Source of the DNA: an uncultured bacterium
GTDB lineage: Bacteria; Fidelibacterota; UBA2242
NCBI GenBank assembly: GCA_964605705.1
Contig: CAZSDW010000001.1
Coordinates: 70,007 to 134,006, forward strand
DNA length: 64,000 nucleotides
Direction of reading: 5' to 3'
A program made the position numbers and the translations under genes. The notes beneath the pieces are model-generated. The model saw nothing but the letters and a program-made list of their open reading frames with translations. It ran no database searches and had not been told where the DNA came from. Shown piece after piece: positions 1 to 6,206 of the stretch; positions within the stretch are counted from its first letter, which is position 1, and the number at the start of each line of letters is the position of its first letter.

Positions 1-162
1 GGTTCTATTCGCCCAATTGATGATGTACGAGACGAAATTCTTCAGAAATTGACACAATCAAAAATTCAGGATTATTACAACAGTTATGTTGATAGTATCA
101 TTTCTATCACTGACTATGAAATTAAAAATGAAAATATTTTAAACTGGAAAATTACTCCATGA
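1..162 (+). CDS. 3' end of an upstream CDS (C-terminal fragment, unknown function; possibly a chaperone/PPIase-type protein)
   Basis: Open frame from window edge (GSIRPIDDVRDEILQKL...NWKITP*) ending at TGA 160-162, overlapping the next ATG (ccATGAaa) - translational coupling. Confidence 0.4.
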   Translation, partial: GSIRPIDDVRDEILQKLTQSKIQDYYNSYVDSIISITDYEIKNENILNWKITP

Positions 163-1412
163 AAAAATCTTTTTTTATAATTTTTACACTTATCTTATCA
201 ATTATATATGCCCAGGAACTAATTGATGGAATTGCCGCGATTGTAGGTGATAATATAATTCTAAAAAGTGATATTGATCAATTTGCTCGAATGAGTGCCT
301 CACAAATGGGAATTGATCCGACACGGGATATTAAAGCTTATAACCAAATCGTTGGTCAATCACTCCAAGCTCTGATTGATGAGAATATTTTACTTGAGCA
401 GGCAAAAATAGAAACAATTGAAGTTAAAGACCGTGAAGTTGAATCCATGCTAAATCAGCAAATAGAAAATATGATTTACCAAGCTGGTTCAAAAGAAAAT
501 GCTGAAAAAATATTGGGTAATCCAATTAATCAAGTAAAACGTGACTATAGACCAATTATCAAAAATCGACTAATTGTTGAAAAATTAAAGAGTGAAAAGT
601 TTTCTCAAATAAATATTACAAGACGTGAAATTGAAGATTTTTATAAAACATATAAAGACAGTATTCCAGAAATACCTCTAACTGTAGATTTTAGTCAGAT
701 TTTATTTCAGATTAAACCAGGGGTTTATGAGGAAAATAAGGCAAAACATCTCGCAGATTCATTATTAATACTTTTAAAAAATGGGGAGGATTTTGGAAAT
801 CTCGCAAAGAATTTTTCTGATGATCCTGCCAGTGCAGCTTACAGTGGAGATCTTGGTTATATTGCGAGGGGCGGATTTATCAAAGAATTCGAAGAAGTTG
901 CTTTTGCTCTGTCAACCAACGAAATAAGTGACGTCGTAAAAACAAAATTTGGATATCATATTATTCAATTACTGGATAAAAAGGGAGAAAATATCAATGT
1001 TCGCCACATTTTAATAAAACCTGAAATATCCAACAATAATATTACCGCCATTAAAAGTAAATCAGACTCTGTTAGAAACTTGTTAATAACCAACAAACTT
1101 CCATTTGATTCTGCTGCAGTGTTATTCAGTGACGATCCCGACGTAAAATCAAATAGGGGAAAAATTCAACGTATTTCGTTAACCCAAATTCAACAACCAG
1201 AATTTGTTGCTATTTTAGACACAATCTCCATTGGAAAAATAAGTCCCTTATTTAAAACAGATTTAGGATATCATATTCTTAAATTGGATAATAAATATGA
1301 CGATTCATGGACAATAATTAAGCAGTGGGCACTGGAATATAAAAAATCAAATCTTTATAAAAAATGGGTTAACGACTTACGCTTAAAATTTAACATTGAG
1401 ATTAAAAATTAA
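159..1412 (+). CDS. SurA-like periplasmic peptidyl-prolyl cis-trans isomerase (SurA_N + two parvulin/PpiC domains), N-terminal signal peptide
   Basis: Signal peptide MKKSFFIIFTLILSIIYAQ. Two parvulin-like segments (…FSDDPASAAYSGDLGYIARGGFIKEFEEVAF…GYHIIQL and …FSDDPDVKSNRGKI…GYHILKL). Length 417 aa. Confidence 0.75.
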   Translation: MKKSFFIIFTLILSIIYAQELIDGIAAIVGDNIILKSDIDQFARMSASQMGIDPTRDIKAYNQIVGQSLQALIDENILLEQAKIETIEVKDREVESMLNQQIENMIYQAGSKENAEKILGNPINQVKRDYRPIIKNRLIVEKLKSEKFSQINITRREIEDFYKTYKDSIPEIPLTVDFSQILFQIKPGVYEENKAKHLADSLLILLKNGEDFGNLAKNFSDDPASAAYSGDLGYIARGGFIKEFEEVAFALSTNEISDVVKTKFGYHIIQLLDKKGENINVRHILIKPEISNNNITAIKSKSDSVRNLLITNKLPFDSAAVLFSDDPDVKSNRGKIQRISLTQIQQPEFVAILDTISIGKISPLFKTDLGYHILKLDNKYDDSWTIIKQWALEYKKSNLYKKWVNDLRLKFNIEIKN

Positions 1413-1426
1413 TCATTAATTCGTTA

Positions 1427-1568
1427 TTGATTTGTTAATAATCCTATAACTTTTTCAAAATATTTTTTCACATTCAAATTATCATTTTTTATTAACAAAT
1501 TCCAAACAGATATTTTATAATAAAAATTTATTTTTCAAGAAGATAAATAATCGTTATTAACAAATCAA
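1427..1568. promoter_or_regulatory. Three copies of a 12-15 bp box TTATTAACAAAT(CAA) in a ~300 bp, ~80% AT intergenic region upstream of dnaN (copies at 1489-1500 +, 1554-1568 +, 1427-1441 inverted)
   Basis: Direct reading: ttgatttgttaataa (1427-1441) is the exact reverse complement of ttattaacaaatcaa (1554-1568). A third copy ttattaacaaat sits at 1489-1500. Both outer copies are preceded by tcgttatt. Confidence 0.45.
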
Positions 1569-1644
1569 CATTTGTATAATTCTAAAAATATCTATTTATC
1601 TTTATGATACTATATTTTATGTATTTTATTGATATTTAAATATC

Positions 1645-1673
1645 TTGTAAATATTGCGATATTTTGGTAAAAT
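1645..1673 (+). promoter_or_regulatory. Candidate sigma70-type promoter for dnaN (TTGTAA-N17-TAAAAT)
   Basis: TTGTAA at 1645-1650, 17-nt spacer, TAAAAT at 1668-1673. AAGGAG RBS follows before the ATG at 1710. Confidence 0.3.
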
Positions 1674-1709
1674 TACCTGTTGTGATAGCAAAATAAAAGG
1701 AGTATAAAA

Positions 1710-2825
1710 ATGCAATTTAGTATCGATAAAAACATTCTCCTTTCACATATTCAAAAAGTTTCAAAAGTATCTCCAACACGTTCTACAATGCCAATTTTAA
1801 ACAGCATTCTTTTTGAAGTTAGTGATGAAAAATTAACTCTTCGTTCTTCGGATATTGAAATAACAATGAATACAACACTGGATATCCAAAATTCAGAGGA
1901 CGGTTCAGTTGCATTACCTACCAGAATTATATATGATATTATCAACGAAGCAGAAGATGGTGAAATTAATTTTTCATCCGGTGAAGAAGGAAATACAATC
2001 CTGAAATCAGGACAGGGTATTTTTGAAATTATGGGTCGTCCCGGTGAGGAATTTCCATCATTACCACAAATTTCAAACTTTAATAATGTCGAAATTGATA
2101 ATTCAATTTTAAAAAGAATGATTCAGAAAACACTGATTGCAGTCAGTCGCGATGAACTGAAACCGGCGTTAATGGGAGTACTTTTTCAAGTAAAACATAA
2201 TGAAATTCGTACAGTTGCAACTGATGGACATCGTCTTGTATGTCTGGTAAGACATGATTTTGTAAATGAGGATTATGAAGGTGAGGTAATTATTCCGGTG
2301 AAGTTTTTAAATCTTTTACTGGGATATCTTGATAGTGAAGGAAAAACCTTATTATCAATCAGTGAAAATCACGTAAAAGTTGAATTAGATTCGACAGTTA
2401 TTTTTTCAAGAATAATTGATGAACATTTTCCGGATTATCAAAGTGTGATTCCAAAAGATAATAATAAAATTGTTGTTACTAATGTGGATAGTATTCTATC
2501 AACATTGAGACGCGTTGTTATTTTTTCCAATAAAACCACTCACCAAATATCTTTATCTCTAAGCAAGGAATTATCAAAAATAACTACGGTTAATCAGGAA
2601 TCGCGAACATCTGCTGACGAAGAAATTAATATTGATTATGATGGTGATGAGATGGTGGTTGGCTATAATGCTGAATATTTTAAAGAAATATTAAGGAATA
2701 TTGATACGGAAAAAGTATTACTGAAATTTAAGTCTTCGATTAATGCCTGTTTAATTTTACCGGAGCATCAAATAGAGGATGAAGATTTTACAATGCTCCT
2801 AATGCCAATACGATTAAATGAATAA
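1710..2825 (+). CDS. dnaN: DNA polymerase III beta subunit (sliding clamp)
   Basis: 371 aa. N-terminus MQFSIDKNILLSHIQKVSKVSPTRSTMPILNSILFEV is typical of beta clamp. Followed by recF. RBS AAAAGGAG upstream. Confidence 0.9.
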   Translation: MQFSIDKNILLSHIQKVSKVSPTRSTMPILNSILFEVSDEKLTLRSSDIEITMNTTLDIQNSEDGSVALPTRIIYDIINEAEDGEINFSSGEEGNTILKSGQGIFEIMGRPGEEFPSLPQISNFNNVEIDNSILKRMIQKTLIAVSRDELKPALMGVLFQVKHNEIRTVATDGHRLVCLVRHDFVNEDYEGEVIIPVKFLNLLLGYLDSEGKTLLSISENHVKVELDSTVIFSRIIDEHFPDYQSVIPKDNNKIVVTNVDSILSTLRRVVIFSNKTTHQISLSLSKELSKITTVNQESRTSADEEINIDYDGDEMVVGYNAEYFKEILRNIDTEKVLLKFKSSINACLILPEHQIEDEDFTMLLMPIRLNE

Positions 2826-2887
2826 AAATCTTAATTATTATATTTTTGTTATATCTCTGAATTTGTTTCTAAAATTTTGTACTTTTA

Positions 2888-4002
2888 ATGAAACTCACGA
2901 AGCTCACACTGAATCATTTCAGAAACTATAATCACTGCGTTTTTGAATTCAATGACAATCTGAATATTATTATAGGAAATAATGGTACAGGTAAAACGAC
3001 ATTACTTGAAGCCATTCATTTTCTATCGCTTACAAAAAGTTTTCGTACGCATAATGACACCGATGCGATAAGTTTTAATAACGATTATTTTCAAATATTT
3101 GGAACCTTTAGGGATAATAATAAGAAAGAGAATTTAGTTAATCTCAATTATTCAAAAGGTGCAGAAAAAAAACTGTTTTTAAACAATTCCGAACTTAAGA
3201 AAAAAACGGATATTATTGGTAAGATACCTGTCATTATTTTATCACCCGGAATTCAGAAAATCACCGATGGAGGTCCATCTATCAGAAGGAATTTTATTGA
3301 TAGAATATTATCACAGGTCGATCGTGATTATCTTTGTTCGCTTATTGAGTACAGAAAAATGTTAAGCCAAAGAAATATTTTATTAGTGGATTTTAAAAAA
3401 AGAAATGTCAGAAAATATGATAAGTATATGGAAACAATTGATGATATTTTAATTAATCATGCTTTTTATATTCAAACAAATAGACAGATTTTTTTTGAAT
3501 TATATAATCCAATTTTTAAAAAGAGTTTTGACACTCTTGCATATATTAAAAAGCCAGTCGATCTGAAAATAAATCCAAATATTTCTGCTGATAAAGAAGA
3601 TTTTAAACAGCAATTTAAAGATAAACTTGTTGATCGCTTTGAGAGAGATATTATTTTAGGTAGAACAAGCGCCGGTCCTCATTTGGACCAAATTTCCTTT
3701 CTGTTCGGAGATAGAGACATTCGCTTTGTTGGATCTCAGGGAGAACAAAAAATATATTTAGTTGCTTTAAAACTCGCTGAAAGTATTTTTATTGAAAACA
3801 GAACAAAAGATAAAATCATCTTTTTACTCGATGATCTTTTTGCTTTTCTTGATGTCAAACACTGTATGAATATTATTAAAAAGATCGGAAAAAGGAACCA
3901 GACCTTTATTACCGCTACCGATATAATGATATTTAAAAAAAATAAATTTAATTTTGAAAATTACAATTCAACGATTTTCGACTTACCTAAAGGAATGTCC
4001 TA

Positions 4003-4003
<1 letters not shown>
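2888..4003 (+). CDS. recF: DNA replication/repair protein RecF
   Basis: MKLTKLTLNHFRNY…GNNGTGKTTLLEAI (Walker A). 371 aa. Sits in the dnaN-recF-gyrB context. Confidence 0.9.

Positions 4004-6206
<2,203 letters not shown>

Follow-up and report, generated by a model that had tools for sequence, protein, structure and literature searches.

The 64-kb stretch of DNA that we analysed (the window) belongs to the Marinimicrobia (SAR406), and the DnaN homologues of named source are labelled Candidatus Marinimicrobia; an exact look-up of the window's own DnaN returned no record. Close to the start of the window, a short intergenic spacer separates a surA-like gene from dnaN (Table 1). The original prediction had named these two neighbours, which Pfam analysis supported, and had described 297 bp of about 80% AT; the length is as described and the AT content slightly higher. 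Downstream of the spacer the gene order is dnaN-recF-dciA-gyrB-gyrA, while rpmH-rnpA-yidC-mnmE-mnmG and dnaA are found within 14 kb upstream in relatives. The spacer is thus flanked by replication indicator genes, of which dnaA, dnaN, gidA and others are used by Ori-Finder (PMC10225481).

Table 1. Features of the surA-dnaN region, in window positions unless a relative is named.
Feature	Position	Strand	Evidence and remarks
SurA-like PPIase	159..1412	+	Pfam; last gene of the upstream block with lagging-strand composition
surA-like/dnaN intergenic spacer	1413..1709		297 nt, 17% GC (83% AT); candidate oriC
Box R	1433..1441	-	TTATTAACA; 12-mer 1430-1441; in left inverted-repeat arm 1427-1441
Box 2a	1489..1497	+	TTATTAACA; 12-mer 1489-1500
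Box 2b, degenerate	1500..1508	+	TTCCAAACA; starts 11 nt after the start of box 2a
Box 3a	1554..1562	+	TTATTAACA; 12-mer 1554-1565; in right inverted-repeat arm 1554-1568
Box 3b, half-degenerate	1562..1570	+	AAATCAACA; tandem pair with box 3a
Candidate DNA-unwinding element (least stable duplex)	1571..1644	.	Nearest-neighbour free energy; tentative
Putative dnaN promoter	1645..1673	+	-35 TTGTAA, 17-nt spacer, TG-extended -10 TAAAAT; consensus scan
Shine-Dalgarno AAGGAG of dnaN	1697..1702	+	Columns A293-G298 invariant in the spacer alignment
dnaN (beta sliding clamp)	1710..2825	+	Pfam DNA_pol3_beta, three domains
recF	2888..4003	+	Pfam SMC_N / AAA_23; synteny
dciA (helicase-loading factor)	4003..4281	+	Pfam DciA, E = 1.3e-17
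dnaA and its upstream spacer (relatives)	L056 4434-6238; L057 4427-6284; L058 4202-6176		Placed by synteny some 11.5 kb ahead of window position 1

The spacer contains three copies of a 12-mer, two of them direct (TTATTAACAAAT at 1489-1500 and 1554-1565, plus strand) and one inverted (ATTTGTTAATAA, the exact reverse complement, at 1430-1441), and the 64-kb window has no further exact copy. The first direct copy had been placed correctly by the original prediction, whereas the second had been given as 1554-1566, one base too long. The outer copies belong to a 15-nt inverted repeat (arms 1427-1441 and 1554-1568), as originally described, whose arms are 100% complementary. They had also been described as each preceded by TCGTTATT. 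This motif is present at both, at 1421-1428 and 1551-1558, but the description holds only loosely for the right copy, where the last five bases of the motif are the start of the box.

Each 12-mer includes the 9-mer TTATTAACA, which matches the DnaA box TTATCCACA at 7 of 9 positions, the degree of resemblance originally claimed. The stringent E. coli consensus TT[A/T]TNCACA (Schaper and Messer, as quoted in 10.1101/866236) is not matched by the window boxes, in which position 6 is A. Counting the 9-mer family TTAT[TC][AC]ACA, a comparison that the original prediction had proposed, gave 3 members in the 297-nt spacer against 6 in the other 63.7 kb, so that the spacer is about 100-fold denser and no similar density occurs elsewhere in the window. 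When the spacer was shuffled 2000 times with dinucleotides preserved, no shuffle had three or more family copies (mean 0.08). Two degenerate boxes complete the set, one of which (2b) is assigned in the window by alignment alone and has 2 mismatches to TTATCAACA. With three exact and two degenerate boxes in 297 non-coding nt, the spacer has the multi-box character of an oriC. A candidate second cluster at 62.7-63.4 kb was dismissed, since its sites are scattered within a long coding region.

Directly behind boxes 3a and 3b lies the least stable duplex, with a nearest-neighbour free energy of about -37.5 kcal/mol per 40 bp over 1570-1649 versus -44.6 on average in the region. In 6 of 9 loci, one of the two least stable 40-mers begins 18-49 nt behind box 3a. 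AT-richness extends over the whole spacer, however, and several loci have a second unstable patch between box R and box 2, so that more than one stretch could be the unwinding element. The order of 3a/3b and AT-rich stretch agrees with the basal unwinding system, in which box, spacer and trios follow one another (PMC8287927). In that system a box with at most 2 mismatches, optionally a second with at most 4, and a spacer of at most 16 bp are followed by at least 3 consecutive trios with a conserved middle base (PMC8287927); in the window, boxes 3a and 3b differ from TTATCCACA at 2 and 3 positions, and the spacer measures 13 nt. DnaA-trios (ATA ATT CTA) do follow this 13-nt spacer, but likewise in 81% of shuffles, and none of the runs of 1-6 trios in the relatives was significant. 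For this search, the strand and orientation of the trios rest on how we read the E. coli origin rather than on PMC8287927.

The predicted dnaN promoter forms a block, CTTGTAAA...TTTTGGTAAAAT, that is kept in L001, L019, L049, L050, L052 and L053 (L numbers denote the loci of relatives). Another, strong promoter-like sequence, TTAACA-18-TATAAT at 1492-1521, overlaps box 2a and was dropped, since its -10 is not conserved in the spacer alignment. Between the -10 of dnaN and the Shine-Dalgarno sequence, at 1676-1688, most relatives share the motif (GAC)GTGATA (TGTTGTGATAGC in the window), which could be a transcript-start mark or a leader element. An Rfam scan of positions 1200-1900 found no family; its only match, to a snoRNA and below threshold, was taken as chance.

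The loci of relatives were collected from genome and metagenome scans plus look-ups of DnaN homologues. One contig (L015) is nearly identical to the window, with 99% DnaN identity. Eight relatives with 40-80% DnaN identity are syntenic (L019, L049, L050, L052, L051, L053, L055 and L007), and all eight show (yidC)-mnmE-mnmG-mfd-ppiC-(ppiC)-surA, a spacer of 290-320 nt and dnaN-recF-dciA-gyrB-gyrA on one strand. Two further loci, L002 (43% DnaN identity) and L054 (48%), are non-syntenic upstream and without boxes, and were set aside as uninformative.

The spacers of the relatives have diverged to a mean column identity of 56%, but the positions and orientations of the boxes are kept. An inverted box follows just past the surA stop, 276-302 nt before the dnaN ATG, in L019, L052, L051, L053 and L007. 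Eight of the nine loci, counting the window, have a box on the plus strand 221-228 nt ahead of the ATG; L052 has its first plus box, ATATTAACA, at 234 nt and the second at 223 nt. The degenerate box 2b of the window aligns with TTATCAACA or TTATTCACA in L050, L052, L055 and L053 (TTATTCACA in L055), and the 11-nt spacing of this pair is kept across relatives. Nearer to dnaN, at about 151-167 nt from the ATG, begins another pair on the plus strand. The distance from 2a to 3a is 65-68 nt, extended to 77 nt in L007, the most distant locus.

In box 3a, columns T150-T153 and A156-A158 (numbering of the first sequence) are invariant in the spacer alignment. The orthologous box is TTATCAACA in L049, L052 and L053 and a perfect TTATCCACA in L019 and L058. 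That the third box turns into TTATCCACA in relatives ties the motif to DnaA far better than a resemblance at 7 of 9 positions. The 3a/3b pattern TTATNNACA-AA(T/C)-(T/C)(A/C)AC is kept in close relatives and looser in L055 and L007. Overall the box cores vary only among TTATTAACA, TTATCAACA, TTATCCACA and TTATTCACA, and the orthologous boxes with TTATCCACA (L019, L058) or TTATTCACA (L055) match the stringent TT[A/T]TNCACA. What is kept is the 9-mer cores alone; the 15-nt arms are not retained as an inverted repeat in the relatives.

Since the leading strand is usually rich in G, an origin is recognised by a switch from negative to positive GC skew. The window covers 1.4 kb upstream of the spacer, and the switch is seen in the relatives, where GC skew is -0.03 to -0.07 over the 10 kb upstream of dnaN and +0.07 to +0.23 downstream in 7 of the 8 syntenic loci; L007 shows a step without a change of sign. 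The upstream skew is negative despite all genes being on the plus strand. At third codon positions, skew is at or below zero in every upstream gene and its sign flips from surA to dnaN in 8/8 genomes: surA is at -0.077 in the window and negative in 7/7 relatives, and dnaN is positive in 8/8 genomes including the window. The minimum of the raw cumulative skew is not exactly on the spacer but 1.3-3.0 kb before the ATG, within ppiC and surA, which are tightly packed. In most syntenic loci the spacer is the sole sizeable non-coding stretch near the switch; close to the skew minimum, L053 and L055 have two more spacers, of 114 and 221 nt, in which boxes are absent. In the relatives the skew is negative from -19 kb to about -1.5 kb and positive downstream, and the spacer lies at this switch, where an oriC is expected.

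Downstream, the whole-sequence skew of the window stays positive to 64 kb, an arm of 62 kb. Pooled GC3 skew is +0.11 for plus-strand genes and -0.11 for minus-strand genes. These mirrored values imply a coding effect near 0 and a replication effect of about 0.11, the plus strand being the leading strand over 62 kb. The GC3 skew of recF, gyrB and gyrA in the window is slightly negative. Of the coding length downstream, 63% is on the plus strand, which fits the origin reading.

The original prediction had held that dnaA is not next to dnaN, and tblastn with E. coli DnaA found it neither in the window nor within 10 kb of dnaN in Marinimicrobia loci. This query was validated by strong matches in unrelated loci, many with dnaA beside dnaN. 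Ignavibacteria DnaA as a query for Marinimicrobia DnaA retrieved Zixibacteria-like proteins only. By walking upstream of mnmG, we found dnaA in relatives on the strand opposite to dnaN and 13-14.4 kb upstream of it, divergent from rpmH-rnpA-yidD-yidC-mnmE-mnmG-mfd-ppiC-ppiC-surA.

The dnaA-rpmH spacer of L056, L057 and L058 carries three boxes each of the same family, TTATCAACA or TTATTAACA, one about 25 nt from the dnaA start and the other two in tandem, 11 nt apart. The comparison with the region upstream of dnaA, which had been recommended as a check, thus returned the same box family. Autoregulatory DnaA boxes are expected just before the dnaA start. This shared family marks the motif as very probably the DnaA box of the lineage and at the same time makes the dnaA-rpmH spacer a serious rival origin site. 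Its GC content is 34-41%, versus 17-23% for the surA-dnaN spacer in most loci. At dnaA-rpmH the skew of L056, L057 and L058 does not change, staying negative out to -19 kb; the nine plus-strand genes between the two box clusters all have lagging-strand-type composition.

The Marinimicrobia encode a cognate DnaA with Bac_DnaA and Bac_DnaA_C domains and an intact DNA-binding domain IV. Compared with E. coli, R399, D433, H434 and H439 are conserved in L056, L057 and L058, while T435 is replaced by S and P423 by K, two positions that we take to be base-contacting. Domain IV reads RDHSTVVHA and SLK(T/S)IG in Marinimicrobia, for RDHTTVLHA and SLPEIG in E. coli. Ignavibacteria DnaA carries the same two changes, which therefore may not explain the A at position 6 of the box.

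Taken together, the sequences of the window and its relatives indicate that the surA-dnaN spacer is probably the chromosomal oriC, or at least the part of it at which DnaA assembles and opens the DNA. The boxes themselves are very probably DnaA boxes, as the original prediction had proposed: their position and orientation are kept, they become perfect TTATCCACA in L019 and L058, and their family recurs before dnaA. DnaA binding, the unwinding site, helicase loading, origin firing and the inversion are steps that we infer. DnaA would fill five lineage-typical boxes, the inverted R, the tandem 2a/2b, one helical turn apart on the plus strand, and the tandem 3a/3b. The last pair, oriented like the E. 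coli R1 box toward its unwinding element, would direct opening at the least stable AT-rich stretch around 1571-1644. Helicase loading may then be aided by DciA, encoded two genes downstream, and forks would depart in both directions. The predicted dnaN promoter abuts the unstable stretch, so that DnaA occupancy may also tune dnaN-recF-dciA-gyrBA. The layout corresponds to a single inversion from the common rpmH<-|dnaA->|dnaN-> arrangement, and an old inversion is its likely cause. Such an inversion of the block running from dnaA through the dnaA-box cluster and rpmH to mnmG would have put dnaA 13-14 kb away and left the unwinding half of an ancestral dnaA-flanking origin beside dnaN.

Several of the results above count against an oriC in the spacer: the skew minimum off the spacer, the unchanged sign of the skew in L007, the slightly negative GC3 skew of recF, gyrB and gyrA, the A at box position 6, the trios at chance level and the second unstable patch. 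So does the gene layout. About 13 kb of genes (rpmH, yidC, mnmE and others) would run head-on to the leftward fork, which is unusual, and the box cluster between the divergent dnaA and rpmH genes occupies the classical position of an origin. The boxes upstream of dnaN might then be operators through which DnaA regulates dnaN-recF-dciA-gyrBA and nothing else, with replication starting at another site such as the dnaA-rpmH spacer, where gene orientation would suit an origin. DnaA is a known transcription factor with boxes upstream of replication genes (PMC4447404, PMC11317965), and a conserved promoter does lie inside the spacer. Yet we regard this explanation as unlikely, since GC and GC3 skew keep their sign at dnaA-rpmH and switch at surA/dnaN in 7/8 genomes, the boxes lie 80-220 nt upstream of the -35, too far for simple promoter occlusion, and the surA-dnaN spacer is far more AT-rich than the dnaA-rpmH spacer. 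The original prediction had offered oriC and a dnaN operator array side by side, and had named a skew switch elsewhere with a dnaA-linked box cluster as evidence against an origin here; the cluster does exist in relatives, 13-14 kb upstream, but the switch is not there. The sign switch at surA-dnaN favours oriC over a pure operator array, secondary regulation of dnaN being possible.

The two clusters could also cooperate as a split (bipartite) origin across 13 kb, with unwinding on the dnaN side. Both spacers share the box family and the tandem 11-nt spacing, and the layout resembles an ancestral dnaA-flanking origin pulled apart by inversion. We think this improbable: autoregulation explains the boxes on the dnaA side well enough, and in the bipartite origins known to us (Bacillus subtilis, Helicobacter pylori type) nothing but dnaA, about 1.4 kb, lies between the two parts. 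That the repeats belong to another lineage-specific regulator or to a small mobile element (142 nt, 1427-1568), or arose by chance, is very unlikely. An exact 15-nt inverted repeat with 112 nt between its arms does resemble a miniature inverted-repeat element, but the 64 kb contain no other copy, orthologous loci occur throughout the phylum, and conservation is confined to the 9-mer cores and does not include the arms. Low-complexity matches are common in a spacer of 83% AT, but chance is excluded by the shuffles. Against all three, locus, position and orientation are kept down to 40% DnaN identity while the flanks are not, the box becomes canonical TTATCCACA in L019 and L058, and no Rfam family was found.

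The proposed Marinimicrobia oriC can be compared with several known systems. Like the dnaA-dnaN (incC) half of the B. subtilis-type oriC with its boxes 6/7 (PMC6669920, PMC8287927), it lies directly upstream of dnaN, has a same-orientation tandem pair pointing toward an AT-rich, easily melted stretch, and is accompanied by a second cluster at the dnaA promoter. Unlike in B. subtilis, dnaA is not adjacent but 13-14 kb away on the other strand, a GC-rich spacer is missing, trios are not above chance, and the core is TTAT(T/C)AACA instead of TTATCCACA. In Synechococcus elongatus PCC 7942, oriC is located near dnaN and dnaA is separate (Watanabe et al. 2012, as cited in PMC7198777). The two share an origin at the GC-skew shift next to dnaN with dnaA elsewhere; they differ in phylum, in the box, which is TTTTCCACA in cyanobacteria (PMC10225481), and in that Marinimicrobia dnaA is about 13 kb off with boxes of its own. 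The S. elongatus origin was mapped by experiment, whereas that of the Marinimicrobia is predicted from sequence.

The AT-shifted box has precedents. The annotation of Mycoplasma hominis, M. mobile and M. arthritidis includes TTATTAACA as a putative DnaA box (PMC2751442), and both TTATCAACA and TTATTAACA are listed as variant DnaA boxes of T5-like phages (bioRxiv 10.1101/866236). These 9-mers are identical to those of the window and its relatives, AT-shifted and matching TTATCCACA at 7/9 positions; the mycoplasma boxes, putative there too, lie upstream of dnaA, with none before dnaN. E. coli oriC (R1-R4) likewise has a 9-mer cluster in both orientations beside an AT-rich element, with mnmG (gidA) nearby. 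It differs from the Marinimicrobia spacer in having C, not A, at position 6 and in its other flanking genes, and no GATC or 13-mer repeats were noted in the latter.

The biology proposed here is conventional, an ordinary kind of element in a little-studied phylum, although the separation from dnaA is unusual and the box is AT-shifted. For the Marinimicrobia/SAR406, an abundant ocean phylum with almost no genetics, it provides a testable origin and a DnaA-box definition, TTAT(T/C)(A/C)ACA. An origin position is needed for metagenomic peak-to-trough growth-rate estimates, and it can serve as start coordinate and for assembly checks of closed genomes. It may also help to tune origin predictors whose default is TTATCCACA next to dnaA, for which a dnaA-linked box cluster with divergent genes can act as a decoy. 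More speculatively, the Marinimicrobia may throughout have an origin split by inversion, with the essential block rpmH-rnpA-yidC-mnmE-mnmG-mfd-ppiC-surA permanently head-on to the leftward fork phylum-wide, an AT-shifted box TTAT(T/C)AACA and an origin placed in a conserved 5-6 kb AT-rich trough; we consider this combination possible but doubtful. If true, a trough that reaches the synonymous sites of surA, dnaN and recF would hint that mutation or selection centred on the origin acts on coding DNA.

The trough is conserved. The first 4.3 kb of the window have 29% GC versus 43% for the rest. A chimeric contig with a GC jump near 4300 was rejected as the cause, because L001, L019 and all syntenic loci share both the gene order and the gradient. 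GC falls to 28-35% in a trough centred on the spacer, versus about 43-47% on both sides (window 1-4300 versus 4400-64000; roughly from -4 kb to +2.5 kb relative to dnaN in L019, L049-L053, L055 and L007). Synonymous sites share it, with a GC3 of 0.20-0.25 in surA, dnaN and recF versus 0.40-0.43 in gyrB and gyrA. Origin-proximal mutational bias or selection for easy melting could be the cause. Two independent assemblies, L001 (JAHJGX010000037.1) and L016, have their position 1 in the AT-rich spacer, 81-88 nt upstream of dnaN, and these contig breaks suggest that the origin region is hard to assemble or of low coverage.

A further TTATTAACA (12-mer TTATTAACAAGT) lies at 1081-1089 on the minus strand, within the surA-like gene about 330 nt before its stop, and a box of the same family is found at the matching place of surA in L019, L049, L050, L056 and L058. 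This site may act as an outlying DnaA box, or may just be conserved Leu-Leu-Ile coding sequence. At the 5' end of gyrB (4284-4371), homology to the GyrB N-terminus reaches 84 nt upstream of the first ATG (4371), and between the stop at 4260 and this ATG the frame has no ATG, GTG or TTG. The ATT at 4287 corresponds to ATT or ATA in the alignment of L049, L050, L052 and L058. The gyrB call of L058 (640 residues) begins at that ATT/ATA, while several relatives' calls are truncated to 611; the start at 4287 looks like a conserved non-canonical start codon.
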